From: an uncultured Actinomycetes bacterium
GTDB taxonomy: Bacteria; Actinomycetota; Actinomycetes; Mycobacteriales; Nakamurellaceae
Length of the DNA: 64,000 nucleotides
Direction of reading: 5' to 3'
NCBI GenBank assembly: GCA_964624455.1
Contig: CAZUXD010000007.1
Coordinates: 5,126 to 69,125, forward strand
Shown here one piece after another: positions 481-28,479 of this stretch. The notes under the pieces were generated by a model that saw only the letters and a program-made list of their open reading frames with translations, was not told the origin of the DNA and did no database searches. A program made the position numbers and the translations under genes. Every line of letters begins with the position of its first letter. Position 1 is the first letter of the stretch.

Positions 481-3983
<3,503 letters not shown>

Positions 3984-5718: not shown

Positions 5719-5734
5719 TCGAACCTATGTTCGG
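5719..5734 (+). promoter_or_regulatory. LexA (SOS) box, actinobacterial type
   Basis: TCGAACCTATGTTCGG compared with the consensus TCGAAC-N4-GTTCGA (15/16 if the last base is counted). A TAGTAT -10-like hexamer (5713-5718) lies immediately upstream. The imuA' ATG (5727) lies inside the box. Confidence 0.75.
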
Positions 5735-6587
5735 TTCGCGTGAGGGCGGCGGTCGGGACCGCTCGGCGGTCGTCGCCGACCTGCGCCGCCGGATCGGCGC
5801 CATCGACGGGCCGGCCTGGACCGGCGCTGCATCCGAGAACCCGCCGGATGACGGTCGAGCGGCGGCCGGCCCGAGAGTCGGTGGCCCGATAGTCGATGAC
5901 GAGGCAGCCGGGGCCGGCGCCGATCACGGCAGACCCGCCGGGCGCACCGGGGTGCTCGCGGTTCCCGGTCCGCTGGCCGAGGCGTTGCCGCGCGGGGGAG
6001 TGCCCCGCGGTTGCGTGGTGAGCCTTGGCAGCGCCGCCCCCGGGCGAAACGGTGCCACCAGCCTGCTGCTGTCGCTGCTGGCCGCGCCGCCCGGCATCTG
6101 GGCGGCGGTGGTCGGTATGCCCGGTCTGGGGGTGCTGGCAGCCGCCGAACTGGGTGTCGACCTCGACCGGCTCGGCCTGATCCCCGATCCGGGACCGGAT
6201 GTGCTGCAGGTGCTCTCGGTGCTCGCGGACGGGGTGGACGTGATCGCCGCGGCGGCTCCGGCGAAGCTGCCGCCGGCCCGGCAGCGGGTGCTGGTCGGGC
6301 GGCTTCGCCAGGCCGGCACCGTGCTGCTGGTGATGGGCCGCTGGCCCGGCGCCGACCTGTCGATGACGGTGACCGGCGTGCGCTGGTCGGGTATCGGCCA
6401 GGGGCACGGCCGGCTCCGGGACCGGGAGATCGACGTGCAGGTCGCCGGCCGGCGTCTCGGCGTCGGATCGACCGTCACCTTGCTGCTGCGCTCCGACCGG
6501 ACCACCGTCACCGTCCAGGCGGCCGCTCCGGCGGCGCGGCCGGTCCCCGCCGAACTACCGGTCGCGGCGCGCGCCGGTGCGGGCTGA
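5727..6587 (+). CDS. imuA': ImuA'-like SOS mutasome accessory protein (RecA-fold-like)
   Basis: 286 aa. The core (…GCVVSLGS…GATSLLLSLLAAP…WAAVVGMPGLGVLAAAELGVDLDRLGLIPDPG…VDVIAAAAP…LRQAGTVLLVMGRWPGADL…RWSGIGQGHGRLRDREIDV) resembles mycobacterial ImuA' as I recall it. A LexA box sits at the start. imuB-dnaE2 is present in the same window. Confidence 0.7.
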   Translation: MFGSREGGGRDRSAVVADLRRRIGAIDGPAWTGAASENPPDDGRAAAGPRVGGPIVDDEAAGAGADHGRPAGRTGVLAVPGPLAEALPRGGVPRGCVVSLGSAAPGRNGATSLLLSLLAAPPGIWAAVVGMPGLGVLAAAELGVDLDRLGLIPDPGPDVLQVLSVLADGVDVIAAAAPAKLPPARQRVLVGRLRQAGTVLLVMGRWPGADLSMTVTGVRWSGIGQGHGRLRDREIDVQVAGRRLGVGSTVTLLLRSDRTTVTVQAAAPAARPVPAELPVAARAGAG

Positions 6588-6616
6588 CCGGGAGCGGCGC
6601 CGGGCGAGAAGGCACG

Positions 6617-8275
6617 TCATCCGGCGGGCTCCGCCTCTCCGGCACCGGTGCTCCTGGTCTCGTGCAGGTTCGCCAGGGCCGACTTCTCCGGGTTGGGGTC
6701 GGCGTTCCACTTCTGGCCGGTCGACCCGTCGCACGTCGTCACGATCACCTTGAGGTTCTTGTTGTAGGCGTCGTCGACCGGCCCGGGCGACATGCATAGC
6801 CCCACCGAGTCCACCAGCGTGTACTTCTGCTTGTACGGCAAGGGGTCTCCGCCGGCGTCCACCTTCTCGTATCGGGTCCAGGTCTGGTTGTCGACGTAGC
6901 TCCCGTTGCTGCAGGTGCTGACGTACACGTAGCCGCCGACGCTTCGCGAGCTCGTCAGACAATAGGTGCCGGACCCGGGGTACGTGCGCCACTGCACTCC
7001 GCCGGTCACCTCGACCTGGTCGAACTTCTGGTTCCACGCCACCGAACCGGGATTGGGATTCTGCTTGCACGGATACAGGATCAGGAACGACCCGCCGTTG
7101 TCGCCGGTGGCGGTGCTCTGGTTGGTCACGTCCAGGCAGCGGCCGAACAGCAGGAAGTTGACGACCTGGTGGTTCGGCTCACCCGCCTGCCCGGCGCCGA
7201 CGCTCGGCATCGGGTTGAAGGCCTGGTGCGGATCGGTGGTACCGCCGGTGCAGCCTTCGAGGGTCAACGGCTCGCCGCCTCGCTGCTGATCCACGTTGAG
7301 GCAATATCCGTTCAGCCCGCCCTTGCTGGTGGTCGAGCCCTCGAAGTGGCCGCTGTCGTTCACGCTCCACAGCAGGTTCCACGACGCCGTCCCGGGCTCG
7401 CCCTTGGCGGTGTTGGCGGGGCACTTGTCCAGCGTGATGTTGTTCGGCGTCGAACCGACCGTCGGCGAACGAAGGCAGAGCCCGGTCCCGTTGTCGTTCA
7501 ACCCCTTGTCACCCACGGTCGGCGTCAACTGGATGGTCAGGTTGTTCAGGTACGCCCACAGTTGCGGGGCCGGCACCGGCGCACCCCCGGTGGGGCAGGG
7601 TTGGATGACGACGCTGCTGCCGACCGCGGGCGAGATCCCGGCGTCCAGGCAGTAGCTGTCCGCCGAGCCGTCCTCGGGGAAGAGCGGCAGCGCCCCGCCG
7701 GCGATGTTGGCGTTGGTGGTGCTGACGTTGTAGGTGGCCCGCAGCGTGCGGCTGGGCTTCGCCGGGTCGTCGGTTCCGATCGACGTCAACAGCACGAAAC
7801 TCGGCACGGCGGTGTCGGAGCCCGACGCTTCGTCGTGGTAGTAGACCCCGTAGCCCGTGACACACTGCATCTGATGGTCCGCCAGCCACTCGGCGTCGCG
7901 GCCGGTCGGATCGGCGGTGAAGTAGGCGATGGTGACGACGTAGCTGCCGGAGCCGTCCGGGCCGAAAGTGCCGCTGAGGGGGTCGCACGGCAGCTTCGCG
8001 ACGTCGCCCATGAGCTGGCCGCTCTCGTCCTTCTCGCCCGCGGCCCGGATCTGCCCGAGCGCGACGTCCAGGCCGGATTCCGCGGCCTGCAGGCTCACGG
8101 CGCGCCGGTTGTCGAACCGGGTGATGCTGTTCTGCGTCATCGCGATGGGCAGCAGCAGGGCGGCCAGCGCCAGGCCGACGAGCATCACCAGCAAGGCCAT
8201 CGGGAGCGAACCGCGGTCGTCGTCCGGCGGGAACGCCCGACGCCCCGGGTTCGGATCGGGTCGGCAGGCAGTCAT
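6617..8275 (-). CDS. PilX-N-like pilus protein with two ricin-type beta-trefoil lectin modules
   Basis: 552 aa. Hydrophobic N-terminal anchor (GSLPMALLVMLVGLALAALLLPIAM) followed by …AVSLQAAESGLDVALGQI…, which is PilX_N-like. The C-terminal ~330 aa has repeated CL-x-(D/V)…Q-x-W/F triplets (QLW, LLW, QAF; QKF, QTW, QKW) and paired Cys. Its start overlaps the stop of the upstream pilin gene by 4 nt. Confidence 0.7.
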   Translation of the reverse strand: MTACRPDPNPGRRAFPPDDDRGSLPMALLVMLVGLALAALLLPIAMTQNSITRFDNRRAVSLQAAESGLDVALGQIRAAGEKDESGQLMGDVAKLPCDPLSGTFGPDGSGSYVVTIAYFTADPTGRDAEWLADHQMQCVTGYGVYYHDEASGSDTAVPSFVLLTSIGTDDPAKPSRTLRATYNVSTTNANIAGGALPLFPEDGSADSYCLDAGISPAVGSSVVIQPCPTGGAPVPAPQLWAYLNNLTIQLTPTVGDKGLNDNGTGLCLRSPTVGSTPNNITLDKCPANTAKGEPGTASWNLLWSVNDSGHFEGSTTSKGGLNGYCLNVDQQRGGEPLTLEGCTGGTTDPHQAFNPMPSVGAGQAGEPNHQVVNFLLFGRCLDVTNQSTATGDNGGSFLILYPCKQNPNPGSVAWNQKFDQVEVTGGVQWRTYPGSGTYCLTSSRSVGGYVYVSTCSNGSYVDNQTWTRYEKVDAGGDPLPYKQKYTLVDSVGLCMSPGPVDDAYNKNLKVIVTTCDGSTGQKWNADPNPEKSALANLHETRSTGAGEAEPAG

Positions 8276-8934
8276 GGGGTTCCCACCTCCTGGCAGACCG
8301 CTGTGTTTCCGTCGCCGTCGGCCGCCTCGTCCAGGCCGGTGGAGTTGAGCGCGGTGAACGTCACATCGGTGATGCTGATCGTCTGCTGATTGCCGCTGCC
8401 GGCCGTCGAGGACAGGTGGATGCGCAGCGCGCGCTTGTCGAGCACCGTGAACGGCGGCTGGGTGTGCCCGTTCCGCTTGACCGGCGTGATCTGGCCGGCG
8501 AGCACCTCCCAGGAGCTGAGCCCCGATGAGCCGCCGCCGGCGTCGACCGACCAGGTCCGTTCCTGCAGTTGCGACGTGATGGTGTTCACGCGCAACTGGG
8601 TGCAGACCGGGCTGCCGGTGTAGGTGCTCTGGTAGGCGACGTACCAGTTGCCGTCCGCGGCGGTTGTCGAGGCGCCGGAACCGTCGCTGGGGTCGGCGAA
8701 TGCCGAGGCGTACCGCAGCGAGGAGTCGAGCCGGCTGATCGCCGCGTTGATCTGCGCCGAGGTGTCGGTGACCCCCTGGGTCTTGTTGGTCGCGTGGTAC
8801 ATGGACACCATCGCGCCGGTGAAGATCGCCAGGAACAGGCCCATCAGCGCCATGCCCACCATGACCTCGAGCATGGTGATTCCGGAGTCGGCGCCTGCTG
8901 GGCGCCGCGTCGGAGGGCGGTGGGCGCGGATCAT
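8272..8934 (-). CDS. Minor pilin (prepilin-type N-terminal cleavage/methylation domain)
   Basis: 220 aa starting at ATG 8934: MIRAHRPPTRRPAGADSG|ITMLEVMVGMALMGLFLAIF, a class III signal peptide with Glu at +5. ATGA overlap with the upstream giant pilin gene. Confidence 0.75.
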   Translation of the reverse strand: MIRAHRPPTRRPAGADSGITMLEVMVGMALMGLFLAIFTGAMVSMYHATNKTQGVTDTSAQINAAISRLDSSLRYASAFADPSDGSGASTTAADGNWYVAYQSTYTGSPVCTQLRVNTITSQLQERTWSVDAGGGSSGLSSWEVLAGQITPVKRNGHTQPPFTVLDKRALRIHLSSTAGSGNQQTISITDVTFTALNSTGLDEAADGDGNTAVCQEVGTP

Positions 8935-11930
8935 CGGAAGGTCCACTGCTGGCTGCTGTCGGAGTCGTCGGCGGTGGCCATCTGGACCGAATACGTGTAG
9001 CCGTTGCGCCGGCTCCCCGTGCGGTTCGCGTCCAGGACGTTCCCGCTGGCGATCGCGGTGATCCTGCCGTCCGAGCCGATCGAGAATTGCTGCGCGGCGT
9101 TCCCCGCGGCGCAGGAGGCCAGGGTCGGGGGATCGCCCACGTTGGCGTCGGTCAGGCAGCGTTCCGATCCGCTGTACGTCGTCCTGATCGTGCCGTCGCC
9201 CGGCATCGACCACGTGGTGCCGCAGGAGTCGGAGAGCGTGACGGTCCAACTGCTTCCGCGGGTCAGGCAATAGCCGCCGTAGGACGAGCTCTCGATGGTG
9301 CCGCCGGTGATGAGCCAGGTGAACTGCGTGGTCGCGGTGCGGCCGGTCCCGTCGTCGGTGACGGTCACGCTGATGCTCGTGCCGGTCGTCTCGCACGGCG
9401 CCGCGACGGACAGGGTGTGCTGGTTGTCGAAGCTGGCCCAAGAGGCGTTGGTCGACACCGAATAGCTCACGGTCCGGCTGCCGGCGCCGGCCAGCCCGGC
9501 CGAGAGGTCAAGGGACGCGCCGTTGTCGTACTGGCATTCACCCTGCCATCCCCCGCTCGTCGCGCTGGGCGCCGTTGCCCGGTCGGCCAGGTGGAACGAC
9601 AGCACGTACCACGTGAACGTCGCCCGTGCGGTGGCGCCGGTGGCGTCCCTGACCTCGACGGTGATCGGCCCCTTGACGCCGGCGGCATTCGGCGTGCCGG
9701 ACATCCTTCCGGTGCTGGCCAGTGTCACCCCGCTGGGCAGGCTGCCCGAAACGACGCGGTACGTCAGCGGCGCGGTGCCGCCGGAGGCCATGGCGCCCAG
9801 CGAGAGATCGACGGTGTCCTTGGGGGAGTCGCCGAGGATGGTGATCTGGTCGGGGATCGTCAGGCTCAGGCCGCCGACGACGTTCCAATTGAACGTCGCG
9901 CTCGCCGACTGCGCTGGGATCTGCTTGTCGGTGATGGTGACGGTGATCCCGGCGATGGTCGTCGGTGCGGCGGGGGCGGTTCCGGTGATCAGGCCGCTGG
10001 CCTGGTTGATCTGCAACCAGGCCGGCTTGTTGGTCAGCTTGTACGTGCAGGGGCCGACGGAGCTGCACGTCCCGGCGATCTGCAGGCTGATGCCCTGGCC
10101 GACTTCGCTTTGCTGGTCGCCCGGGTTGGTGATGGAGGGCCCGTCGACGACGCGCCAGGTGAACGGCGCGGTGGTGGCACTGGCGCCGCCGGCGTCGGTG
10201 GCGGTGATCGTGATGCCGGAGGTGACGGAGGGGCTGCCCGGTGCCCGGCCGGTGATGGTTCCGCTGGACCGGCCGAGGCTGAGCCAGCCGGGCAGATTCG
10301 TTGCGCTGTAGGTGCATCCGCTGTTCGGGCAGGTTGCGGTCAGTTGCAGGCTCACCTGCTGGCCGACGGTGGCGCGCTGATCACCCGGATTCGTGATCAC
10401 CGGCTTGGCGTACACCCTGATCGAGAACGACGCGCTGGTGGTCTGGTTCGCCGCGGTGTCGGAGACGGTCAGGGTGACGGGATACACCCCTGTCCCGGTC
10501 GGGGTTCCGGTGATGCGGTATCCGGCGGCCGAGTCTCCGGTGAGCGTGGTGCCGGTGGGCAGCCCGGTGGCGCTCATCGTGTAGTTGCCGCTGCCGCCGG
10601 TGAGCGGCAGCGGGAGGTTGAGGGCGGTTCCCAGGGTGAGGTTCACGTCCGGCAACGCCGGCGGCGTGAGCGCCTCGTACACCCGCCAGGTGAAGGAACC
10701 CTCCGCGGTCCGCTTCCCGGAACCGTCGGTGACGGTGACGGTGACGCCGAAGCTGCCGGCGGCAGACGGTGCGCCGGTGAACGTGCCGGTGGTAGAGCCC
10801 AGGCTGATGCCGGTCGGCAGACCTGTTGCCGCATAGCGGTAGTTGCTGCCGCTGCCACCGGTTGCGACGAGCGTGAACGGGGTGATGCCCTTCCCCTTGG
10901 TGGCGACCTGGTCCACGACGGGTCCGAGGGCGAGCCGCGGCAGCACCGTCCAGGTGAACTGGTTCCCGGTCGCCTGGCGCAGGAAGGCGTCTCGCACGGT
11001 GATTCGGGTTCGGACGGTTCCCGCGGCACCGTCGACCGTTCCGGTGATGTGCGCGTCCTGGTTGAGCAGCAGGCCCGACGGCAGCGCGTCCGCGGACCAG
11101 GTGAAGGAGGGCACCCCGCCGGACAGCGTGCAGATCGGCTGCGGCTCGCCCGCCGGGGCGGATCCGAACACCGGCAGGTCGACCTGGTCGCCCACCGCGA
11201 CCGCCTGGTTCTTGCAGGCCGACAGGTTTGGCATCGGCGGCGGTTCGGTGTTGAAGTTGAACATCGGGTCGGCGTCGCCGTTGAGCAGGGTGGCCCCGAT
11301 GCGGTAGCAGGTCCCCGAATCGCAGGAGGCGTCCGGCCAGGTGACGGCGACGACCACGCGCACGTACCGGACGTAGGACACGTCCGGCGAATCGCTGCCG
11401 TTGGTGCAGTTCTGGCTCGCCTGGTCGTCCGAACTGACCCGCCGGCAGGTGCCGACCAGGTAGCTGACGGAATAGTCCACGCCGCCCACTGTCTGCACCA
11501 CCGGCGTGGTCGGCAGGTCCGGGTCTGCGGACGGCGCGGGCGCGGCCGCCTGGTCCATCCCGTCGAGCCATGGCTGCACCGGGGTGCCGGCGAACGACGC
11601 GAACTGCGCGGACACATCACTTCCGCCGCGGCCGGCGACCGCTGCCGCCGCGCCGACGCTGCGCGCGTGATCGATGGCTGCGGTGGTCACGGCGGCCGCG
11701 GATTGCGCCGAGCGCAGGTAGTTCACCGACGACAGGGTGCGGACGAAGAGCGTCGTCAGCGCCGCGGTGACCACGGTGATCAACGTGATGGAGACGATGA
11801 CCTCGAGCAGCGTGAAGCCTCCCGTGCGGTCGGTCTGCACAGGGCGGGGCCGGAAAGGGAACAGGCGCAGGGAAGGTTCCGGGCGGCGGGCGTTACCCGG
11901 GACCCGTGATCGATGCCGCGGTCGGAACAT
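8931..11930 (-). CDS. Giant modular pilin: class III signal peptide + ~7 Ig-like (He_PIG/cadherin-like) repeats + C-terminal ricin-type lectin
   Basis: 999 aa from ATG 11930: …QTDRTGG|FTLLEVIVSITLITVVTAAL. About seven ~90-aa repeats each end in F(T/S/N)W-x-V (…GLPTGISL…TGAPS…VTVTDGSG…FTWRV). The C-terminal ~130 aa has CLT…QQF…VLDA…QQWTF. The longer 1258-codon ORF would overlap pilO and is rejected. Confidence 0.8.
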   Translation of the reverse strand: MFRPRHRSRVPGNARRPEPSLRLFPFRPRPVQTDRTGGFTLLEVIVSITLITVVTAALTTLFVRTLSSVNYLRSAQSAAAVTTAAIDHARSVGAAAAVAGRGGSDVSAQFASFAGTPVQPWLDGMDQAAAPAPSADPDLPTTPVVQTVGGVDYSVSYLVGTCRRVSSDDQASQNCTNGSDSPDVSYVRYVRVVVAVTWPDASCDSGTCYRIGATLLNGDADPMFNFNTEPPPMPNLSACKNQAVAVGDQVDLPVFGSAPAGEPQPICTLSGGVPSFTWSADALPSGLLLNQDAHITGTVDGAAGTVRTRITVRDAFLRQATGNQFTWTVLPRLALGPVVDQVATKGKGITPFTLVATGGSGSNYRYAATGLPTGISLGSTTGTFTGAPSAAGSFGVTVTVTDGSGKRTAEGSFTWRVYEALTPPALPDVNLTLGTALNLPLPLTGGSGNYTMSATGLPTGTTLTGDSAAGYRITGTPTGTGVYPVTLTVSDTAANQTTSASFSIRVYAKPVITNPGDQRATVGQQVSLQLTATCPNSGCTYSATNLPGWLSLGRSSGTITGRAPGSPSVTSGITITATDAGGASATTAPFTWRVVDGPSITNPGDQQSEVGQGISLQIAGTCSSVGPCTYKLTNKPAWLQINQASGLITGTAPAAPTTIAGITVTITDKQIPAQSASATFNWNVVGGLSLTIPDQITILGDSPKDTVDLSLGAMASGGTAPLTYRVVSGSLPSGVTLASTGRMSGTPNAAGVKGPITVEVRDATGATARATFTWYVLSFHLADRATAPSATSGGWQGECQYDNGASLDLSAGLAGAGSRTVSYSVSTNASWASFDNQHTLSVAAPCETTGTSISVTVTDDGTGRTATTQFTWLITGGTIESSSYGGYCLTRGSSWTVTLSDSCGTTWSMPGDGTIRTTYSGSERCLTDANVGDPPTLASCAAGNAAQQFSIGSDGRITAIASGNVLDANRTGSRRNGYTYSVQMATADDSDSSQQWTFR

Positions 11931-11941
11931 GGCGGCCGTTC

Positions 11942-12736
11942 TCAGTTTGCCGCGCCGAGTTGCTCGGCGAGCGCCGCCTCCTGTTTCGGAGTCTGCGGTG
12001 CGACGAAGATCTGCAGTTGGGTCGTCAACACCCACTGCTTCGTCGTCGGAGCGGCTTGCGCGGCGTCGCCGCCGTCCGACACCGGAGCCGGGGTGAACGC
12101 GGCCGAGACCACCAGCGCGCGGCGCGGACCCGCCTTTTCGAGCAGCGAGAGGAAGTCCCGCTGCTCGTCCATGGACCCGTCGGTGACGAGCGCGACGGCG
12201 ATCGAGTACAACTGTCCGGCCGGGCCCTGCGTGCCTTTCGACGTGGATCCCTTGCCCGAGGCGTCGGCGTCGGTCTTGGCGGCGCGGTCGGCGGCATCGC
12301 CCGCCACCGACTCCGCCTTCTCGACCGGGTTGTTCCCGGCCTTGGCGTCGGACGCGCTCGGACTCTTGCCCTTCGGCGCGGCGATCTTGGTGGGCGCGCC
12401 CGGCGTGATGCTGGCCACCGTCACGTGCGCGGCCTTCGCGTGCTCGGCCACCTGGTCGGTGAACGAGTCGAGGTCGTGCTGCACGGGCAGGCCCGCCTGC
12501 AGCACGTCCACTTGCTGCCGCAACTCGCCGGCATGCGCCCGCTCGGCGCGCAACTGGCTGATCTTGTTGTGCAACAGCAGGTTCTGCATCTGGGTATCGG
12601 CCACCTGCTGCTCCGTCGCGGCCTTGCTGTCGAGCTGCGGGGAGAGGAAGAACAGCCATGCGACGGCCGCCAGCGCGACCGCGACGACGACCCCGCCGGC
12701 GATCCACACCCGGTCCATGCGGCGCGCGACCATCAC
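11942..12736 (-). CDS. pilO: PilO-like type IV pilus assembly protein
   Basis: 264 aa with a single N-terminal TM (VWIAGGVVVAVALAAVAWLFF), then a coiled-coil region (…QMQNLLLHNKISQLRAERAHAGELRQQVDVLQ…) and a low-complexity insert. Position is after pilM/pilN. ATGA overlap with pilN. Confidence 0.65.
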   Translation of the reverse strand: MMVARRMDRVWIAGGVVVAVALAAVAWLFFLSPQLDSKAATEQQVADTQMQNLLLHNKISQLRAERAHAGELRQQVDVLQAGLPVQHDLDSFTDQVAEHAKAAHVTVASITPGAPTKIAAPKGKSPSASDAKAGNNPVEKAESVAGDAADRAAKTDADASGKGSTSKGTQGPAGQLYSIAVALVTDGSMDEQRDFLSLLEKAGPRRALVVSAAFTPAPVSDGGDAAQAAPTTKQWVLTTQLQIFVAPQTPKQEAALAEQLGAAN

Positions 12737-13437: not shown

Positions 13438-13450
13438 GTCACACCTGCGT

Positions 13451-14512: not shown

Positions 14513-14555
14513 GGAAGGTCCTTGGGTTGGTCAGAACTGGACGTCGGACGTCAAA

Positions 14556-15011: not shown

Positions 15012-15074
15012 GTGAGCCTCCCAGCTCCTTTTCCAGTGCGCCTGCCGGATGCAGGACGCCACGGGTATTGCGGT

Positions 15075-19610: not shown

Positions 19611-19622
19611 GTCGCGTGGAGC

Positions 19623-19733: not shown

Positions 19734-19884
19734 TAGGTTGCTGGAGCGCTGGATCGCCGCCGGGGAGGCGGAATTTCAAGCCGGTCTTCGCGACGGTTCG
19801 CGTCCAGAGCGGGTCCGGGTTCCGGACGGTGGTCGTAGTGGGCCCATCCGGAGGCCTGCTACACGATGTTGGGCCTTGCATCGC

Positions 19885-20466: not shown

Positions 20467-20595
20467 CGGCACGCTTTCAATCGGGCATCTGTTCATTCTA
20501 GTCACTTGCTACACATGTCCGTCCCGCTGAATGGACCGTTGTCGTACCTTCGTTCTAAACTCAGAACATAGTTCAGGAGCCGTTTGGAGGGTGTG

Positions 20596-22725
20596 ATGGA
20601 CGTCTGGGGGTCCGGGGAGTGGTGGGCAGCCTGGCAGAGTGCGCCTGCCCTGGAGGGTACAGCGGGGGGAGGGTACGCATCCTTCGCTGAGGAGGACAGC
20701 GCTGAGGAGGACAGCGTTGAGGAGGACACGGCCGGCGCGCGGGATGCCGGCCGCGCCAACTGGGGCAGCGGCAGCGGCCGCGCCAACTGGGGCAGCGGCC
20801 GCGCCAACAAGGCCATCTCGGTGCATGCCTCGCACCCGCCCCGCACCGAGGGAGGACCCTCGCCTGCTACCGCGGGCGAGGCCGGTGAATCCTCGTCATC
20901 GACAGAAACGCCAGCGAGGCCGGGGGCGGAGGCAACACGGCCTCCGTCATCGAACGGCCGGGCCGACTTGGAGCGGTTGGAGGCCCGGATCCGCGGAATG
21001 GCGGCCAACTTGGCGGCTTCGACGTGCGAGTGGTTGCACCTGATCGGGCAGTTCGACCGGGCCGAGGGTTGGGCTGGGGTCGGGATCCAGTCCTGCGCCG
21101 CATGGTTGTCGTGGACGTGCTCGGTCGCACCGGGGACCGCGCGCGAATACGTGCGCATCGCGCGGATGCTGCCGGCATTGCCGCTGGTGGACGAGGCATT
21201 TACGGCGGGGCGTTTGTCGTACTCCAAGGTGCGGGTGCTGGCCCAGGTCGCCGGCGAGGTGGACGAAGCCGTGCTGGTGGAGCAGGCGCAGGTGCAGACG
21301 GTGTCCCAACTCGAACGGACGGTCCGGGCCTACCGGCGCGGCGATGGGCGCGATCAGCAGCGTAAGCGTCGGGCGGTCTGGCGATGGGATGACGACGGGA
21401 TGCTTGTCCTATCGGCCCGGCTGCCACCCGACGAGGGCGCCCTGCTCCTCGCCGCACTGGAACGAGCGAGGGACGACATCGCTCCTCGCCCCGAACCCTC
21501 ATGCCCCGAACCCTCATGCTCCGAACCCTCATGCCCCGAACCTGTTGCCGGGCAGGATGATGCCACCCCTGGAGATGCCGCACCGGTAGGCGAGCCCACC
21601 GGAGCAATCATGTGCTCGGCATCCGGCGGCGGCACGATTGCCGATTTTGCCGGCGTAGCGGGTGATTTCGTGGGCACAGCGGGTGATTTCGTGGGCACAG
21701 CGGGTGATTTCGTGGGCGCAGCCGATGATTTCGCAGCAGCCGATACCGCCGCCGCGGCTGTCGCCCCCGCACCGGCGGGGCATCCGATGCCACGACCAAC
21801 CGGCGACGACCGGCAGCGAGCCGCGCTGGCGGGCGCCGACCCGCTCGGGATGGCCGGTGCGGACATGCTCGTCGCGCTCGCACAACGGGCGCTGGCGGCG
21901 GGGGAGGTGGACGGTTCAGGTGACGATCGTCATCTCCTGATACTGCATGCGGATCTCGACCACCTCGTCGATGACGACGAATCGGGGCCACGCGATTCCC
22001 AGCCGGTCGGCGGATTAATCGGCTCCGAAGCTGAGCTACACGAAACCAACGGTGGGCAAGCCGATTCCGGCGCCGAATTGACCGATAACGGCACGGGGTC
22101 AATCGGATTCGCTGATGATCATGCAGATTCCCCTCCCGGCGGGCGCCGTCCCGGGGTGCGGCCCGCGGCCGGGTCCACCCTTGCCCGGGCGCGCTGCCAT
22201 CTGGAGGACGGTCCGGGCCTAGATCGTCGGATGGCGCAGCGGATTGCTTGCGATGCAGCACTTGTCGCAGTGCTGCACCATGTCGGCGAAGGGGAACCGC
22301 TGCGGTTGGGACGAAAGACCCGGACCATCTCGCCGGCGCAGCGCCGCGCCCTGCGCGTTCGCGACGGCGGCTGCCGGTTCCCGGGTTGCCATCGCCGCAA
22401 GCACCTTGAGGCGCATCACGTACGGCACTGGTCGCTCCTTGGACCCACCGACCTGGAGAACCTGGTCCTGCTGTGCCGCTTTCACCACATGCTCATCCAC
22501 GAGGGTGGTTTCCGGGTGTCGGCAACTTCCCAAGGATCGTGGGCGTTTCGTGATGCTCGCAGTGTGCCGGTGACGATGGCTCCGCGGCTACCCGGTCATG
22601 ATGGTGCAGCGCTGCCGGTGCAAGTGGGCGATCCGATGGCGCTTCTGCCGGGTTGGCGCGGCGAGCCGTTCCACCTGGCCGAAACCGTCGCCGTTCTGAT
22701 GCGAGCCGCCGGGGCGGGTACGTGA
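20596..22725 (+). CDS. DUF222 + HNH endonuclease (13E12-repeat-family-like)
   Basis: ORF 20584-22725; ATG 20596 follows a GGAGG RBS. DUF222-like region: …LAASTCEWLHLIGQFDRAEGWAGVGIQSCAAWLSW…AREYVRIA…. C-terminal HNH: …RDGGCRFPGCHRRKHLEAHHVRHW…NLVLLCRFHHMLIHEGG…. The N-terminal ~120 aa and the start are uncertain. Confidence 0.8.
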   Translation: MDVWGSGEWWAAWQSAPALEGTAGGGYASFAEEDSAEEDSVEEDTAGARDAGRANWGSGSGRANWGSGRANKAISVHASHPPRTEGGPSPATAGEAGESSSSTETPARPGAEATRPPSSNGRADLERLEARIRGMAANLAASTCEWLHLIGQFDRAEGWAGVGIQSCAAWLSWTCSVAPGTAREYVRIARMLPALPLVDEAFTAGRLSYSKVRVLAQVAGEVDEAVLVEQAQVQTVSQLERTVRAYRRGDGRDQQRKRRAVWRWDDDGMLVLSARLPPDEGALLLAALERARDDIAPRPEPSCPEPSCSEPSCPEPVAGQDDATPGDAAPVGEPTGAIMCSASGGGTIADFAGVAGDFVGTAGDFVGTAGDFVGAADDFAAADTAAAAVAPAPAGHPMPRPTGDDRQRAALAGADPLGMAGADMLVALAQRALAAGEVDGSGDDRHLLILHADLDHLVDDDESGPRDSQPVGGLIGSEAELHETNGGQADSGAELTDNGTGSIGFADDHADSPPGGRRPGVRPAAGSTLARARCHLEDGPGLDRRMAQRIACDAALVAVLHHVGEGEPLRLGRKTRTISPAQRRALRVRDGGCRFPGCHRRKHLEAHHVRHWSLLGPTDLENLVLLCRFHHMLIHEGGFRVSATSQGSWAFRDARSVPVTMAPRLPGHDGAALPVQVGDPMALLPGWRGEPFHLAETVAVLMRAAGAGT

Positions 22726-24620
22726 TGACGGCCGCAAACGCTACCGGATGGGCACCGGCCGGGCAGGCGTCCGGGGCTCGTCCGTCCGCGCATGGCCGCG
22801 GTCGTACCCGCCGCAGAAACGAGCCGTACACCAGCCCTGCGCCCGATAACCGGCCGGCCAGCGGCCCGCCCGGCCCGGCGCCGGCCCCTCCTCCTTCCGC
22901 CGCGGTCGCCGCATCTTCCGGCGGCGGCCTGCCCGCCCGATCCCGCACTCTGATCATCTGGTGCCCGGACTGGCCGGCGGTCGCCGCCGCCCGGAACGCC
23001 GGCCATCCAACGGAAGGGGCCGTTGCGGTCTTCCACGCGAACCGGGTGCAGGCTTGCTCGGCGGCGGCCCGCGCCGATGGGGTCCGCACGGGCATGCGCC
23101 GCCGGGACGCCCAGTCCCGCTCGCCCGGCCTGGCGGCATTGCCCGCCGATGCGGATCGCGATGCGCGGCTGTTCGAGCCGGTCGCCGCGGCGGTGGAGGC
23201 GATCGTCCCCGGGATAGAGGTGCTCCGGCCCGGCATGCTCGCGTGCGCGCTTCGCGGGCCGGCCCGGTATTTCGGGTCGGAGACCGCAGCAGCCGAACGG
23301 CTCGTCGACGCGGTCGAGGCGCTGGATGTGGAATGCCGGATCGGCATCGCCGACGTGTTGCCGGTCGCGGTGCTGGCCGCCCGGCAGTCGGTGATCATCC
23401 CGCCGGGCGGTGACGCGGTGTTCTGCGCCCGGCTGCCGATCGTGGAGCTGGCGCGTGATCCGGCCATTGCTTCGCCAGAGCGAATGCAGCTCGTTGATCT
23501 GCTGATGCGGTTGGGCATCACCACCGCGGGGGCGTTCGCGGCACTTCCCTTCGACAAGGTTGCCGCGCGGTTCGGGGCGGAGGGGATGGTGCTGCACCGG
23601 CTGGCGTCCGGCCGGGCCGAGCGCGGACTGTCCCGGCGCCACATCGACACCGACCTGTCCGTGGAGAAGGTCTGTGACCCCCCGCTGGAACGGGTCGACA
23701 CCGCGGCGTTCGTCGCGCGCGCGCTGGCCGAGCAGTTTCACGCCGGGCTGGCCGCCGCCGGGCTCGCCTGTACCCGGCTGGCGATCACCGCCAGCACCGA
23801 GCGTGGCGCGAGGTTGACCCGAATCTGGCGGGGCGCTCGCCCGTTGTCCGCGGCCGCCACGGCCGATCGGCTGCGCTGGCAGTTGGACGGCTGGTTGACC
23901 AACGGTTCCCGGGTAGGCGCCGGCGACGCCGATCGAGCTGTCGGCGCCGGCCGCGTCGACGCCAGCCACATCGATGACGTTGGTTCCGGGCACATCGATA
24001 CCGCCGATCCGAGCGATCGACCGGGGGCGATCACCAAGCTCCGACTGGAACCGATCGAGGCGGTCGGGGCCGGGCTGATCCAGTACGGGCTGTGGGGGCA
24101 GGACGGGGAGGGCGAACACCGAGCCGGGTGGGCGTTCGCCCGGGTGCAAGGGCTGCTCGGCCCGGACGCGGTCCTGGCCGCCACCCCCTCCGGCGGTCGC
24201 GGTCCGGCCGACCGCGTCACCCTGACCGGTTGGGGGGAGGAGAGGATCCCGAGGCGCGATCCGACCGCCCCCTGGCCCGGGGTGCTGCCGTCGCCGGCGC
24301 CGGCTTCGCACCTTCGGGCCGGCGGTGGCGCGGCCGCCGGAAACGTCGCTTCCGGGGCCACCGTCACCGTCTCGGATCCCGCTGGCCGCGAGGTCGCCGT
24401 CACCGACCGGGGAATGCTCACCGGACCGCCCGCCGCGGTCGGCGGCAACCGGGTGCTGTCCTGGGCTGGGCCCTGGTTGCTGGACGAGCGTTGGTGGTCT
24501 GGCCCCGTCACCGCGCCAGCGGCCCGGACGGCCCGGATGCAGGTGATCGCCGACGGGATGTCCCCGATGCTGCTCGGGTTCGGCTCGCGCGGCTGGCAGG
24601 TCGAGGCGGTGTACGACTGA
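22725..24620 (+). CDS. imuB: ImuB, Y-family-polymerase-like mutasome subunit
   Basis: ATG 22725 overlaps the HNH TGA (GTGATGA). After a ~95-aa Pro/Ala-rich N-terminus the core is …RTLIIWCPDWPAVAAA…AVFHANRVQACSAAARADGVRTGMRRRDAQ…FEPVAAAVE…GIADVLPVAVLAAR…. Directly upstream of dnaE2. Confidence 0.85.
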   Translation: MTAANATGWAPAGQASGARPSAHGRGRTRRRNEPYTSPAPDNRPASGPPGPAPAPPPSAAVAASSGGGLPARSRTLIIWCPDWPAVAAARNAGHPTEGAVAVFHANRVQACSAAARADGVRTGMRRRDAQSRSPGLAALPADADRDARLFEPVAAAVEAIVPGIEVLRPGMLACALRGPARYFGSETAAAERLVDAVEALDVECRIGIADVLPVAVLAARQSVIIPPGGDAVFCARLPIVELARDPAIASPERMQLVDLLMRLGITTAGAFAALPFDKVAARFGAEGMVLHRLASGRAERGLSRRHIDTDLSVEKVCDPPLERVDTAAFVARALAEQFHAGLAAAGLACTRLAITASTERGARLTRIWRGARPLSAAATADRLRWQLDGWLTNGSRVGAGDADRAVGAGRVDASHIDDVGSGHIDTADPSDRPGAITKLRLEPIEAVGAGLIQYGLWGQDGEGEHRAGWAFARVQGLLGPDAVLAATPSGGRGPADRVTLTGWGEERIPRRDPTAPWPGVLPSPAPASHLRAGGGAAAGNVASGATVTVSDPAGREVAVTDRGMLTGPPAAVGGNRVLSWAGPWLLDERWWSGPVTAPAARTARMQVIADGMSPMLLGFGSRGWQVEAVYD

Positions 24621-24747
24621 TGGGGCGCGGTGACGTAGGCGCTGCTCACGGCGGTGACGGTGGCGGTGCGGTTCGCGGTGACGATGCGGCTTACGGCTGT
24701 GACGATGCCGTCTACGGCGATGACGGCGTTCGGCTGAGGTGGCCTTG

Positions 24748-27700
24748 ATGGGCTGGTCCAATCCGCCGGTGCCCTGGGACGAACTGTCCCGGATGATGGA
24801 GGGCCGAGCTCCGCGCGGCGATCGGCCGCGGCCCGCGCTGCGCACGGTGCCGGCAGACGAAGTGTCCCGGCGCCGCGGCACGGGCCGTCGGCCCGATCCG
24901 TCTGCCGGCGCTGCCCCGTCCGCCGGCACCGATCCGACCCCCGGCGCCGATCCGCCTGCCGGCGCTGCCCCGTCCGGCGGCACCGATCCGAACCTCGGCA
25001 CCGATCCGAACCCCGGCGCACCCGCGTCGGCCGTGGTGCCCTACGCGGAACTGCACTGCCATTCGTCGTTCAGCTTCCTGGACGGCGCCTCCACCCCCGA
25101 GCAACTGGTCGCCGAGGCGCTGCGGCTGGACCTGACCGCCCTGGCGCTCACCGACCGGGACGGGTTCTACGGGGTCGTCCGGTTCTGCGAGGCCGCCCGC
25201 GGAACGGGCCTGAAAACCCTGTATGGCGCGGAGCTTTCGCTCGGGTTGCCGCGACCGCAGCTCGGTGAGCCCGACCCTGTCGGCGAGCATCTGCTGGTGC
25301 TGGTCCGCGGACAGGAGGGGTACCGACGGCTGTCCAGGCAGATCACCCACGCGCAGCTCGCCGGTGGGGAGAAGGGCCGCCCGGTCTACGACCTGGACAT
25401 GCTGGCCGGCGCCGCCGACGGGCACTGGCTCGTCCTCACCGGCTGCCGCAAGGGGGCCGTCCGGCGGGCCCTACGCCGCGCCGGACCGGACGGTGCCCTG
25501 GCCGAAGTGCGCACGCTGGTCGACCGTTTCGGCGCCGACAACGTGGCCGTCGAACTCACCCGGCACCTGGTACCCACCGACGACGAGGACAACGACGCGC
25601 TGGCCGGCATCGCCGCCCGGCTGGACCTTCCGGTCGTGGCGACCACCGCGGCGCACTATGCCGACCCGCGGGCCGCCCGGCTCGGCGCCGCCGTGGCCGC
25701 GGTCCGCGCTCGGCGCAGCCTCGCCGAGGCCGACCCCTACCTTCCGGCGGGCCCCAGCGCACACCTGCGATCGGGCGTCGAGATGGCCCGCCTGTTCGCC
25801 CGGTACCCGCAGGCGGTTTCCACCGCGGCGGTGCTGGGCGAACAGTGCGCATTCGACCTGCGCCTTCTCGCGCCCCAACTACCGCCGTTCGACGTGCCGC
25901 CAGGTCATGACGAGGCGAGCTACCTGCGTGAGCTCACCCTGTCCGGGGCGCTTCGCCGCTACGGCCCGCCGGAGCGAAACCCGAAGGCGTACAAGCAGAT
26001 CGAGAAGGAGCTGCGCGTCATCACCGAGATGAACTTCCCCGGTTACTTCCTCGTCGTGTACGACATCACCGAGTTCTGCCGGCGGAGCGACATCCTGTGT
26101 CAGGGCAGGGGATCTGCTGCGAACTCGGCGGTGTGCTACGCGCTGGGGATCACCGCGGTGGACGCGGTCGGCTACGACCTGCTGTTCGAACGATTCCTGG
26201 CCCCCGAACGCGACGGCCCACCCGATATCGATGTGGACATCGAATCCGACCGGCGCGAGGAGGTGATCCAGTACGTCTACCGGAAATACGGCCGGGAGCG
26301 GGCTGCGCAGGTCGCCAACGTCGCCACCTTCCGGCCGCGGATGGCGGTGCGGGACATGGCAAAAGCCCTGGGCTACTCGCCCGGCCAACAGGATGCCTAC
26401 TCCAAACAACTCGACCACTGGACCCCGCTGGCCGATCAGGTGGCCGACGTCGCCGCCGACCGCGGCGCGTCCGGCGCCGGCTTGTTCGCCGCGAACGCCG
26501 ACCGCGGTAGCACCGTCCCGGGCGGCACCGTTCCGGGCGGCACCGGCCGGTATTCCGCCGGGCACGACACCGGAATCCCGCGCGACGTGGTGGAACTGGC
26601 CCAGCAGATCCAGGACCAGCCCCGGCACCTGGGCATCCACTCCGGCGGCATGGTGATCTGCGACCGGCCGGTAGCCGAGGTGTGCCCGGTGGAGTGGGCG
26701 CGGATGGCGGATCGCAGCGTGCTGCAGTGGGACAAGGACGACTGCGCCGCCATCGGCCTGGTCAAGTTCGACCTGCTGGGCCTGGGCATGCTCTCGGCGC
26801 TGCATTACGCCGTCGATCTGGTCCGGGAGCACGAGGGGATCGAGATCGACTTCGCCGCACTGGACCTGGCCGAGCCGGCGGTCTACGAGATGCTGCGGCG
26901 GGCCGACTCGATCGGGGTCTTCCAGGTTGAGTCCCGGGCGCAGATGGCCACGTTGCCGCGCCTGAAGCCGCGCGAGTTCTACGACCTGGTCGTCGAGATC
27001 GCGCTGATCCGGCCCGGTCCCATTCAGGGCGGCTCGGTGCATCCCTACCTGCAGCGCCGGGAGGCGGTCCGGCAGGGCACCTGGCGGGGGCCGTTCGTCG
27101 AGCACCCGGCCATGCAGCGCGCGCTGGGAAAGACCTTGGGGATCCCGCTGTTCCAGGAACAGCTGATGGAACTTGCCATCGACGTGGCCGGGTTCGACGC
27201 CGGGGAGGCCGACCAACTGCGCCGTGCGATGGGTTCCAAACGCTCCGCCGAGAAGATGCGCCGGCTCCGCGATCGGCTGTACACCGGGATGCGCGAATTG
27301 CACGGCATCACCGGCGAACTGGCCGATTCCATCTACGAGCGGCTGCGGGCGTTCGCCAACTTCGGCTTCGCCGAGTCGCACGCGCTGAGCTTCGCCTCGC
27401 TGGTGTTCTACTCCGCCCACCTCAAGCTGCACCACCCGGCGGCGTTCTGCGCCGCGCTGCTGCGCGCCCAGCCGATGGGCTTCTACTCGCCGCAGTCGCT
27501 GGTCGCCGACGCCCGCCGGCACGGGGTCGAGGTGCGCCGCGCGCACGTCAACAGCTCCGTCGCGGCGGCCGGGTTGGAGCCGGGGCCGCGGGGCCGACCA
27601 GCGGTGCGGCTGGGTCTCTCGGGCATCCGGACCATCGGCGACGAGTTGGCCGAGAAGATCCTCGCGGCGCGTCCGGTGGCCGGGTATCCGGACATCGAAT

Positions 27701-28479
27701 CGCTGATGACGGCGGTGACGATGACGGCGGCACAGGCCGAGGCGCTGGCCACCGCCGGCGCTCTCGATGGGCTACCAGGCGGCTGGGGCGGCGTGGCGCG
27801 CGCGCCCGGCACCGCTGGGCATGGACCCGCATCCGGCACCGCTGGGCCCGTGCCCGCATCCGGCGCCGCGGCGCATGTGTTCACCGCTGGACCCGGCGGG
27901 TCCACGCCCACGACCGGTGGGACGGCTGCGGGGCGCACCGCCGGCCGAGGGCGATCGGGGCTGGAGCGCCGGCAAGCCCTGTGGTCGGCCGGGAGCGCGG
28001 CCTCGGCGCGCCCCGGCATGCTGCCGGGCGCGCTGACTGGCCTCCAAGCGCCCACCCTCCCCGGCATGAGCGACATCGAACTGACGGTGGCCGACATCTG
28101 GGCCACCGCCATCTCCCCGGAGCATTATCCGACCGAATTCTCCCGGGAGGGGCTGGCGGCGTTGGGCGTCGTCACCGCCGCAGGGTTGCACGGAATCGAG
28201 CACGGAACTCGGGTGCTGACCGCAGGCATCGTCACCCACCGGCAGCGCCCCTCCACGGCATCCGGCGTCACCTTCCTGAACCTGGAGGACGAGACGGGGA
28301 TGGTCAACGTGATCTGCTCGGTCGGGCTGTGGCACCGCTACCGGCGAATCGCGCGCGGCGCCCCGTCACTTCTGGTCCGCGGCGTCGTCGAGCGGAACGG
28401 CGCGGCGATCTCGCTGGTCGCCGACCGGATTGCCGCCGTCGACCTGGGCGTCGTCATGCCGTCCCGGGACTTCCGCTGA
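24748..28479 (+). CDS. dnaE2: Error-prone DNA polymerase III alpha subunit DnaE2
   Basis: MGWSNPPVPWDEL… N-terminus is typical of DnaE2. PHP domain (YAELHCHSSFSFLDGAS) and pol III alpha core (…GRGSAANSAVCYALGIT…FERFL…PDIDVDIES…). Low-complexity insertions are present. An alternative GTG start lies at 24739. Confidence 0.92.
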   Translation: MGWSNPPVPWDELSRMMEGRAPRGDRPRPALRTVPADEVSRRRGTGRRPDPSAGAAPSAGTDPTPGADPPAGAAPSGGTDPNLGTDPNPGAPASAVVPYAELHCHSSFSFLDGASTPEQLVAEALRLDLTALALTDRDGFYGVVRFCEAARGTGLKTLYGAELSLGLPRPQLGEPDPVGEHLLVLVRGQEGYRRLSRQITHAQLAGGEKGRPVYDLDMLAGAADGHWLVLTGCRKGAVRRALRRAGPDGALAEVRTLVDRFGADNVAVELTRHLVPTDDEDNDALAGIAARLDLPVVATTAAHYADPRAARLGAAVAAVRARRSLAEADPYLPAGPSAHLRSGVEMARLFARYPQAVSTAAVLGEQCAFDLRLLAPQLPPFDVPPGHDEASYLRELTLSGALRRYGPPERNPKAYKQIEKELRVITEMNFPGYFLVVYDITEFCRRSDILCQGRGSAANSAVCYALGITAVDAVGYDLLFERFLAPERDGPPDIDVDIESDRREEVIQYVYRKYGRERAAQVANVATFRPRMAVRDMAKALGYSPGQQDAYSKQLDHWTPLADQVADVAADRGASGAGLFAANADRGSTVPGGTVPGGTGRYSAGHDTGIPRDVVELAQQIQDQPRHLGIHSGGMVICDRPVAEVCPVEWARMADRSVLQWDKDDCAAIGLVKFDLLGLGMLSALHYAVDLVREHEGIEIDFAALDLAEPAVYEMLRRADSIGVFQVESRAQMATLPRLKPREFYDLVVEIALIRPGPIQGGSVHPYLQRREAVRQGTWRGPFVEHPAMQRALGKTLGIPLFQEQLMELAIDVAGFDAGEADQLRRAMGSKRSAEKMRRLRDRLYTGMRELHGITGELADSIYERLRAFANFGFAESHALSFASLVFYSAHLKLHHPAAFCAALLRAQPMGFYSPQSLVADARRHGVEVRRAHVNSSVAAAGLEPGPRGRPAVRLGLSGIRTIGDELAEKILAARPVAGYPDIESLMTAVTMTAAQAEALATAGALDGLPGGWGGVARAPGTAGHGPASGTAGPVPASGAAAHVFTAGPGGSTPTTGGTAAGRTAGRGRSGLERRQALWSAGSAASARPGMLPGALTGLQAPTLPGMSDIELTVADIWATAISPEHYPTEFSREGLAALGVVTAAGLHGIEHGTRVLTAGIVTHRQRPSTASGVTFLNLEDETGMVNVICSVGLWHRYRRIARGAPSLLVRGVVERNGAAISLVADRIAAVDLGVVMPSRDFR

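Follow-up and report, generated by a model that had tools for sequence, protein, structure and literature searches.

In mycobacteria the ImuA'-ImuB-DnaE2 mutasome drives the mutagenesis that DNA damage induces, and through it chromosomal drug resistance. To our knowledge, no role has been assigned to the REP13E12/DUF222 family, whose members are induced by both SOS and PafBC in Mycobacterium tuberculosis. The mycobacterial imuA'/imuB and dnaE2 genes are under joint SOS and PafBC regulation (PMC8682763). In M. tuberculosis dnaE2 is a transcription unit of its own, the transcription start of Rv3395c falls within the SOS box, and the 13E12 (DUF222) genes are bound by LexA and carry RecA-NDp promoters (PMC3381160). 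Promoters of this class reach other Actinobacteria (PMC8223512), and the PafBC consensus has been given as tGTCgg(N10)tA(N3)T, with a strictly conserved GTC triplet (PMC8635444). Here we analyze a stretch of 64,000 nucleotides (nt) from an uncultured actinomycete of the Nakamurellaceae (contig CAZUXD010000007.1), hereafter the window, in which the mutasome gene imuA' stands apart from imuB and dnaE2, and a DUF222/HNH nuclease gene lies directly ahead of imuB.

We consider that the window probably carries a two-unit, damage-responsive mutasome locus of a type usual in the Nakamurella clade, with imuA' alone in one unit and an HNH-imuB-dnaE2 operon as the other. The first unit would be repressed by LexA and freed by RecA-mediated cleavage. 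The second would be transcribed from a PafBC-type promoter (RecA-NDp, 'sigma adaptation') at 20540-20561, with imuB translationally coupled to the HNH gene and dnaE2 co-transcribed 118 nt downstream. Unit 2 would answer mainly to PafBC, that is, to a single-stranded DNA signal, and unit 1 to LexA, and the assembly of the mutasome would need both pathways. PafBC-type control of unit 2 is plausible in the light of the published findings on mycobacterial and other actinobacterial promoters (PMC8682763, PMC8223512, PMC3381160).

Organization of the mutasome genes

The window has a G+C content of about 70%, and its imuB is closest to the imuB genes of Nakamurella genomes and metagenome-assembled genomes. 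Genes were called from Pfam and NCBIfam scans of the window. As a comparison set we have used 80 imuB loci of GTDB species, 25 from the Nakamurella clade and 55 from Rhodococcus, Nocardia and their relatives, plus metagenome contigs; where single loci must be told apart they carry L numbers, L081 and L088 being the same organism and L092 the cultured isolate Nakamurella sp. UYEF19, assembly GCA_040546275.1.

The imuA' gene (5727-6587, plus strand) encodes a RecA-fold mutasome accessory factor of 286 amino acids (aa) that matches the NCBIfam profile NF058630 ('DnaE2-dependent mutagenesis accessory factor ImuA'') with 159 bits, the cut-off being 65. Its homologues bear the Pfam domain PF27531 (MT3502_N) and sit downstream of hisH. 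The imuB gene (22725-24620, plus strand) encodes a 631-aa inactive Y-family scaffold (Pfam IMS, 45 bits) that is 48-76% identical to ImuB across the 80 loci and 48-52% identical to ImuB of the Rhodococcus and Nocardia imuA'-imuB loci, which identifies it as ImuB. Its N-terminal motif IIWCPDWP occupies the position of the DinB catalytic motif. In DinB that motif is D-M-D. The dnaE2 gene (24739-28479, plus strand) encodes an error-prone C-family polymerase that matches NF004225 ('error-prone DNA polymerase') with 1458 bits against a cut-off of 939.

Two of these proteins are longer than in most relatives. ImuB has a proline- and arginine-rich N-terminal extension of 72 aa (22725-22940), also present in L018, and the L087 ImuB is of similar length (653 aa). 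DnaE2 has an extension of about 95 aa (24739-25030) with repeated PSAGAAPS/GTDP units, common to L087, L088 and L048.

Between imuA' and imuB lie a type IV pilus operon identified by Pfam (6617-18045, minus strand), a pilT gene for a retraction ATPase divergent from pilB (18270-19610, plus strand; TIGR01420, 459 bits), a repeat-rich non-coding region of 985 nt (19611-20595) and the DUF222/HNH gene (20596-22725, plus strand). The latter encodes 709 aa from ATG 20596, in an open reading frame (ORF) that opens with TTG 20584, and its product has the DUF222 and HNH architecture, with PF02720 (60.5 bits) and PF01844 (25.1 bits) both above their cut-offs. An earlier note on this DNA had listed these same elements; all of them were recovered at, or within a few bases of, the places given there, and the profile match confirms the identity that it had proposed for ImuA'. 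The split of the cassette that it described is likewise real: imuA' and imuB are not adjacent here, but 16.1 kb apart, with a minus-strand operon, pilT, the repeats and the HNH gene in between.

The window sequence was found in four wastewater DNA runs. Logan contigs from three independent wastewater runs bridge the imuA'/pilus junction (5734-7388), and contigs from the same three runs bridge the HNH/imuB junction (21702-24129), in both cases with zero differences, so that an assembly chimera is ruled out at these two junctions. The pilT/repeat junction (19043-20192) is bridged by none of the listed Logan contigs.

Age and distribution of the split arrangement

In 54 of the 55 loci from Rhodococcus, Nocardia and their relatives, imuA' lies immediately upstream of imuB. 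The 25 Nakamurella-clade loci have the order hisB-hisH-imuA', then a gap, then imuB-dnaE2 followed by an endonuclease/exonuclease/phosphatase (EEP) gene and an amidotransferase gene. Between about 0.2 kb and more than 9 kb long, this gap contains unrelated genes, among others those for an alpha-amylase, an MMPL transporter, a GH3 glycosidase and a histidine kinase. Most of the loci in which both imuA' and imuB are included have two LexA boxes, and the layout is present in at least one cultured isolate, Nakamurella sp. UYEF19.

Synteny therefore places the split in the ancestry of the Nakamurella clade; within the family it is an old and common trait and no recent accident. It is no peculiarity of this genome either, since a separate hisH-imuA' and a separately promoted (HNH-)imuB-dnaE2 are the rule of the clade, and the arrangement is both ancestral and common at the family level. 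The earlier note's statement that mycobacteria keep imuA' and imuB together is correct, but dnaE2 is a separate unit in M. tuberculosis, and thus the dispersal of the cassette is not in itself new (PMC3381160).

Probable coupling of the HNH gene with imuB and dnaE2

The stop codon of the HNH gene (TGA, 22723-22725) overlaps the start of imuB within the sequence GTGATG (22722-22727, plus strand), whether imuB is read from GTG 22722 or from ATG 22725. No ATG, GTG or TTG codon is found in frame between 22728 and the WCPDWP motif (residue 73), and imuB must therefore begin at the overlap. An overlap of the ATGA or TGATG type joins the HNH gene and imuB in 10 of the 11 junctions listed, the two genes being 11 nt apart in L002, and the stop and start codons also overlap in the isolate Nakamurella sp. 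UYEF19. In other actinobacteria imuA' and imuB are joined in this same way.

The imuB-dnaE2 spacer measures 118 nt. Neither a LexA box, nor a PafBC motif, nor a predicted terminator was found between the HNH gene, imuB and dnaE2, and a scan of 18-30 kb for sigma-70 promoters and terminators gave no promoter-like site and no terminator between pilT, the HNH gene, imuB and dnaE2. The idea that imuB is expressed through the HNH gene, one of two options offered by the earlier note, is thus favored by the overlap and by the lack of any other in-frame start before WCPDWP. As for its sequence, the spacer (24621-24738) consists largely of imperfect GGTGACG/GCGGTGACG repeats.

Predicted promoters and LexA operators of the two units

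The imuA' promoter (plus strand) consists of a -10 hexamer, TAGTAT (5714-5719), and a LexA box, TCGAACCTATGTTCGG (5719-5734), that overlap by one base. The box is the only LexA site with at most one mismatch in the 64 kb and has the top score of the window, 25.1 bits, with a weight matrix (PWM) derived from 133 boxes in related loci, in agreement with the claim that imuA' retains a strong LexA box. No PafBC -26 element precedes the imuA' -10 hexamer. The ATG of imuA' (5727) lies inside the box, 7 nt past the TAGTAT hexamer, and the imuA' mRNA is therefore predicted to be leaderless, as it probably is; in L089 and L091 the start codon is likewise within the LexA box.

Ahead of the HNH gene we have found a PafBC/RecA-NDp-type promoter motif on the plus strand (20540-20561), which reads TGTCGTACCTTCGTTCTAAACT and is composed of the -26 element TGTCGT (20540-20545), ten nucleotides (ACCTTCGTTC) and TAAACT (20556-20561), a -10 hexamer of the SigA type. 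The pattern TGTCG[GT]N10TAN3T was searched on both strands of the 64-kb window and in the loci of 25 relatives, and this site is its sole match in the window. The invariant GTC of the -26 element is intact, so that at the level of the motif the site belongs to the PafBC promoters. By arithmetic on base composition, chance would yield about 0.2 matches in the whole window and, for a match no more than 100 nt from the HNH start, about 2e-4. Of the 25 relatives' loci tested, 22 have the same motif in the homologous place, as have L086-L088, with one match each, upstream of the HNH gene or, where this gene is absent, immediately ahead of imuB.

Among 23 relatives, 17 have a LexA box with no more than one mismatch after the PafBC -10 hexamer, beginning at its last base, or 2 nt after it in L048 and L087; in most relatives the box is perfect. 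The corresponding site in the window, TCAGAACATAGTTCAG (20561-20576, plus strand), has five mismatches and a PWM score below zero. It appears to be an eroded operator of the form GAAC-ATA-GTTC, with a 3-nt spacer and substitutions in both arms. Weakened boxes are also found in the close relatives L018, L002 and L088, and L087 keeps a box with one mismatch. The damage promoter of DUF222/HNH genes, a RecA-NDp motif with an SOS box, is thus recognizable here at motif level, with the SOS box eroded. Paralogous DUF222/HNH genes at unrelated sites have the PafBC motif followed by a perfect (L082), a one-mismatch (L084) or a degenerate (L085) LexA box. The sequence TCG[G/T]AC-N4-GTTCTA, upstream of perfect LexA boxes, was considered as a second LexA box and discarded, because it better fits the -26 and -10 elements of a PafBC promoter.

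Taken at the level of motifs, canonical LexA control of HNH-imuB-dnaE2 has probably been lost in the window genome and damage control has probably been kept, the imuB unit having probably moved from dual LexA/PafBC control to PafBC control. The decay of the operator leads us to predict that unit 2 is mainly PafBC-responsive. The earlier note had described imuB-dnaE2 as uncoupled from the SOS box, and this part holds, since no canonical LexA box lies ahead of these genes in the window genome and the operator of the relatives is eroded. They do not appear to be orphaned, since a PafBC-type promoter lies ahead of the coupled HNH gene. Nor is there a need for the unknown regulator invoked there, as the only PafBC match of the window precedes the HNH gene, at a position conserved in the relatives' loci.

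Orthology, selection and loss of the HNH gene

Orthologues of the HNH gene are found immediately ahead of imuB in at least 17 distinct loci of relatives. The window has this order, and so do L002, L006, L013, L014, L017, L020, L021, L022, L028, L086, L087, L088 and L092, as well as L003, where the gene is frameshifted, and L011, where it is present as two ORFs. Among these orthologues the phmmer E-values range from 1e-100 to 1e-177, and on a neighbor-joining tree of ImuB they are scattered over the whole clade. The pairwise identity of the HNH proteins tracks that of ImuB (Pearson 0.94, Spearman 0.76, 45 pairs). The ratio of nonsynonymous to synonymous substitution rates (dN/dS) is 0.12-0.28 for the HNH gene and 0.04-0.08 for imuB, which places the HNH gene under purifying selection. 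In most relatives its G+C content at third codon positions (GC3) equals that of imuB; in the window it is 0.73 versus 0.86 in the neighboring genes.

The His/Asn/His and Cys columns of the HNH protein are invariant in 42 homologues, and the C-terminal tail PGWRGEPF-L...V.V is conserved. The window protein owes its length of 709 aa, compared with 431-627 aa in the orthologues, to low-complexity inserts (EEDS three times, ANWGSG twice, PEPSC three times and GDFVGTA three times) that are absent from the orthologues. Only one DUF222 gene is present in the 64-kb window, and paralogues are found on related metagenome contigs; the more distant DUF222/HNH homologues are not adjacent to imuB.

In about half of the clade the HNH gene has been lost, truncated or frameshifted, with imuB-dnaE2 intact, and in the lineages that lack it the same promoter lies directly ahead of imuB. 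The closest relative, L018 (ImuB 76% identical), has an in-frame remnant of 59 codons, in which the N-terminus (MDDWGPEEWAVAWQGAPA) is fused to the C-terminal tail and which still overlaps the imuB ATG. The frequent losses speak for a dispensable gene, and selection, coupling and co-divergence speak against mere junk; on these comparisons we regard the HNH gene as an ancestral, selected yet dispensable member of the operon. A somewhat different layout was observed in L085 (5257-7515), with hisH-imuA'-HNH and a PafBC motif, where no imuB-dnaE2 is found within 6 kb downstream of the HNH gene and minus-strand genes of the histidine-utilization type follow it.

Searches with the HNH protein gave few leads as to function. 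A sequence search of the PDB found no match, PADLOC no defense-system match, and PHROGs only weak, generic HNH matches. A structure model of the HNH orthologue P0013 (mean pLDDT 69, pTM 0.36) gave nothing at E <= 0.001 with Foldseek against the PDB, apart from a weak likeness of the HNH domain to EcoKMcrA, ScoMcrA and IscB, and offered no further clue; the helical DUF222 domain found no match. In the literature we have found no paper that pairs DUF222 with imuB, and HNH does not come up in a 2026 survey of polymerase-associated modules.

The HNH protein might be a working accessory of the mutasome that, for instance, nicks or processes damaged DNA so that ImuB-DnaE2 gain access, a reading that is compatible with the two-unit locus and that we hold to be unlikely. 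It would explain why the gene takes the operon slot usual for imuA', with the same stop/start overlap, and it agrees with the invariant catalytic His/Asn/His and Cys, the purifying selection, the co-divergence with ImuB and the conserved C-terminal tail. Against it speak the decay of the gene in about half of the clade beside an intact imuB-dnaE2, the L085 locus, where imuA' and the HNH gene occur without imuB-dnaE2 in the 6 kb downstream, a structure model that gives no clue past the HNH domain, and the mycobacterial mutasome, which works with ImuA', ImuB and DnaE2 alone (PMC10421592). A direct role of the HNH protein in the mutasome is possible, but we would not expect it. Equally doubtful is its specific form, in which the protein would be a damage-induced nickase or end-processing enzyme, its output tied to that of ImuB by translational coupling, that shapes the substrates for DnaE2 mutagenesis.

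A selfish origin would make the gene a mobile REP13E12-like element that has repeatedly inserted at one and the same target ahead of imuB, exploits a damage promoter and has no connection with the mutasome. The DUF222/HNH family does include the repeated, insertion-like 13E12 elements of M. tuberculosis (PMC3381160), the gene is patchily distributed on the ImuB tree, frameshifted and deleted copies exist, paralogues with the same type of promoter occupy unrelated sites, and the GC3 of the window copy is lower than that of its neighbors. Nevertheless, a correlation of 0.94 between HNH and ImuB identities is not expected from independent insertions, most relatives have the same GC3 in the HNH gene and in imuB, dN/dS stays well under 1, the overlap with imuB has been kept in nearly all lineages, and neither terminal repeats nor target duplications were seen around the HNH gene. 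We therefore judge this origin to be quite improbable.

Several points weigh against the two-unit proposal itself. Read-through from pilT into unit 2 is possible, given that no terminator is predicted after pilT, and an internal promoter within the HNH gene or the 118-nt imuB-dnaE2 spacer is possible too. We have found no RNA run that contains the window sequence; transcription, like the binding of PafBC and LexA and any role of the HNH protein, is deduced. The sixth position of the -26 element is T and not G, although at a weakly conserved position, and pafBC is presumed to be encoded in the organism. A weak LexA-like site, TCGTACCTTCGTTCTA (20542-20557, plus strand; two mismatches, 11.9 bits, the second best score of the window), overlaps the -26/-10 region and could still confer some LexA control. 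Finally, the patchy distribution of the HNH gene on the ImuB tree demands many independent losses.

Repeats and a candidate upstream element

The non-coding region between pilT and the HNH gene contains two types of repeats. A tandem array with a period of 9 nt (19614-19735, plus strand), in which GGATCGTTT drifts to GGACCGTTT with one step of 24 nt (19659-19683), begins 4 nt after the pilT stop. It is followed by five exact same-strand copies of a 23-nt element with the core CACGTGCTTCGACATTTCGGACA (19879-20472, plus strand; starts at 19889, 19963, 20199, 20371 and 20444), where chance would give none, and 74 nt separate the end of the last copy from the PafBC motif downstream. A permissive Rfam scan of 19500-20700 gave no match, so the repeats are no known RNA family.

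L018, L081/L088 and L087 have a single copy of CACGTGCTTCGACATTTCGGACA each, about 75 nt ahead of the PafBC motif and amid otherwise diverged DNA, and L086 has two variant copies of the 23-nt element further upstream. An exact-pattern scan of the metagenome contigs detected only one further locus, L081, so that in the collection scanned the element is no widely dispersed repeat. We have also considered that the element marks the footprint of an inversion, with an inverted copy at the left boundary of the pilus locus, but none was found there with up to three mismatches.

A shorter motif, A[TA][TAC][TC]CGG[AG]C (typically AATTCGGAC), is enriched about 20-fold in the 250 nt upstream of the PafBC motif across the clade, often at the fixed offsets -41, -61 and -84 from the promoter. 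These regions comprise 20290-20540 of the window and those of L001, L002, L003, L005, L006, L008, L011, L018, L048 and L088. A further regulator of the imuB promoter may act at the short motif, which, together with the repeats, suggests a conserved upstream cis element that would have been amplified in the window genome. We have found no described counterpart of this element (core CACGTGCTTCGACATTTCGGACA, more generally AWTTCGGRC) in the literature.

The pilus locus and a proposed history of the spacer

The minus-strand operon encodes, in order of coordinates, a ricin-lectin protein of 552 aa (6617-8275), a pseudopilin (8272 to about 8930), a giant pilin with He_PIG and ricin domains (8931 to about 11850), PilO (11942-12736; a weak Pfam match, below the cut-off), a PilN-like protein (12733-13437), PilM (13451-14512), a pilin (14556-15062), PilC (15075-16301) and PilB (16378-18045). 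The matches to T2SSE/MshEN, T2SSF, PilM_2, PilO (weak) and N_methyl, and to TIGR01420 for PilT, identify a type IVa pilus. The giant pilin, of about 970 aa, has six Ig-like He_PIG repeats and a ricin-type lectin domain; both this protein and the 552-aa ricin-lectin protein are adhesin-like, lie at the end of the operon and are conserved in L087 and L088.

No pilus genes are found within 10 kb of imuB in any of the 80 GTDB loci. Directly ahead of the HNH promoter, L087 and L088 have plus-strand genes for PilM, PilN, PilO, the giant pilin, the pseudopilin and the ricin lectin. In L089/L090, PilB (minus strand) and PilT-PilC (plus strand) come after imuA'; the window PilT is 72% identical to that of L089, which is likewise divergent from PilB, and the record of the L088 contig includes the ImuA' protein of L089/L090 as well. 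A minus-strand PilM-like gene comes after imuA' in L091, which stems from the farmland study that also gave L087. From this synteny, at least two other subclade members likewise have the pilus locus in the spacer from imuA' to the HNH gene. The window differs from them by a rearrangement that has put the genes from PilC to the ricin lectin on the minus strand behind PilB.

One alternative is that some 16 kb (pilus, repeats and HNH gene) recently inserted into an imuA'-imuB-dnaE2 operon and left imuB-dnaE2 without damage control, dependent on read-through or an unknown regulator. This is in keeping with the 16 kb that separate imuA' and imuB, the lack of a canonical LexA box ahead of imuB-dnaE2 and the adjacency of imuA' and imuB in 54 of the 55 loci from Rhodococcus, Nocardia and their relatives, but it is highly improbable and largely refuted by synteny, as the split with a second damage-type promoter is clade-wide, even at gaps of 0.2-0.8 kb, the HNH gene is orthologous, co-diverges with ImuB and has a PafBC-type promoter upstream, and other subclade members, too, have pilus genes in the spacer between imuA' and this gene. 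The segment from 6.6 to 22.7 kb is thus not one insertion, the HNH gene being old and vertically inherited and the pilus locus a separate cargo.

For the two-unit locus we propose instead the following as the simplest history. A damage-induced, probably REP13E12-like DUF222/HNH gene would have lodged between imuA' and imuB in the ancestor of the clade, and it may have supplied the promoter that now drives imuB-dnaE2. Since then imuB-dnaE2 would have been expressed along with the HNH gene, and the spacer between imuA' and the HNH promoter would have turned into a variable site that collects cargo. The 13-kb pilus locus and the repeat-rich kilobase would be cargo gathered and rearranged in this spacer, and the HNH gene would have been deleted many times.

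Neighboring genes

Upstream of imuA', the window contains, on the plus strand, a fused hisD-hisC gene (508-3327), hisB (3324-3983) and hisH (4286-4918), and, on the minus strand, a vapBC toxin-antitoxin pair (4976-5622). The hisD-hisC gene is a single ORF of 939 aa with histidinol dehydrogenase and aminotransferase domains; the fusion was also called in L089 (891 aa) and L091 (875 aa), the two genes are separate in L085, L086 and L092, and the fusion looks subclade-specific. The vapBC pair, which comprises a PIN-domain VapC (about 4976-5371) and an 85-aa antitoxin ORF (5365-5622), lies between hisH and imuA', and its AT-rich promoter region (5620-5660) is back to back with the imuA' promoter. 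In L089 and L091 hisH and imuA' are about 85-90 nt apart, without vapBC.

After dnaE2 come the EEP gene, a gene for a glutamine amidotransferase, glnE and ftsY. A minus-strand gene some 13 kb downstream of dnaE2 (41586-43790) encodes a RecD2-like helicase with AAA_19/AAA_30, UvrD_C_2 and HHH_RecD2 domains; no adjoining LexA or PafBC motif was noted.

Significance and comparison with known systems

The regulation and composition of the mutasome are active questions, and this locus offers a natural variant that extends over a whole family. The HNH-imuB-dnaE2 operon variant is new, while the ImuA'-ImuB-DnaE2 mutasome, like the dispersal of its cassette, was already known. Separate promoters for imuA' and imuB-dnaE2, here probably under LexA and PafBC, respectively, would be a natural arrangement in which both signals are required, which echoes the experimental co-dependence of mutagenesis on SOS and PafBC (PMC8682763). 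An HNH gene that is under purifying selection and, judging from the overlap, translationally coupled to imuB is a first functional lead for a large group of uncharacterized damage-induced nucleases. If the HNH protein does shape the substrates of DnaE2, this would be the first functional assignment for the large REP13E12/DUF222 family; if it is a mere tolerated passenger, the locus would be a clear case of a mobile damage-induced gene that split an operon and left its promoter behind. The layout of the cultured isolate Nakamurella sp. UYEF19 makes both the two-promoter and the HNH proposals directly testable.

The closest described system, the M. tuberculosis mutasome (Rv3395c-Rv3394c and Rv3370c), has the same three protein families and, like the window, a strong LexA box at imuA' with the start codon and the transcription start at or inside the box (PMC3381160). 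Both are dispersed over more than one damage-regulated unit, with SOS and PafBC regulation (PMC8682763), which in the window is indicated by motifs. The genes are divided differently, however: in mycobacteria, Rhodococcus and Nocardia it is imuB that directly follows imuA', and dnaE2 is often separate, whereas here imuA' is separate and imuB and dnaE2 are together. The window further differs from M. tuberculosis in the DUF222/HNH gene coupled upstream of imuB and in the decayed LexA operator of the imuB unit.

The HNH gene shares with the REP13E12/DUF222-HNH genes of M. tuberculosis (Rv0336, Rv0515, Rv1148c and others) the protein architecture and a RecA-NDp/PafBC motif beside an SOS box (PMC3381160). 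Those genes are multicopy, scattered repeats, some of which are phage attachment sites, whereas the HNH gene of the window is a vertically inherited orthologue that is the first gene of the imuB-dnaE2 operon across the family. The candidate promoter ahead of it resembles the PafBC (RecA-NDp) promoters in its bipartite motif with an invariant GTC, the lack of a -35 element, the place upstream of DNA-damage genes and the frequent association with an SOS box (PMC8635444, PMC8223512); it is known here by its motif, and it differs in the T at the sixth position of the -26 element in the subclade and in the additional upstream element.

Finally, the proteobacterial imuA-imuB-dnaE2 (imuC) cassette follows the same logic, since it is damage-induced and joins a RecA-like factor to an inactive Y-family scaffold and to an error-prone C-family polymerase. 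It differs from the locus described here in being a single, unsplit operon under LexA control, with proteins of the ImuA1/ImuB1 type and without an HNH gene (PMC12926913).

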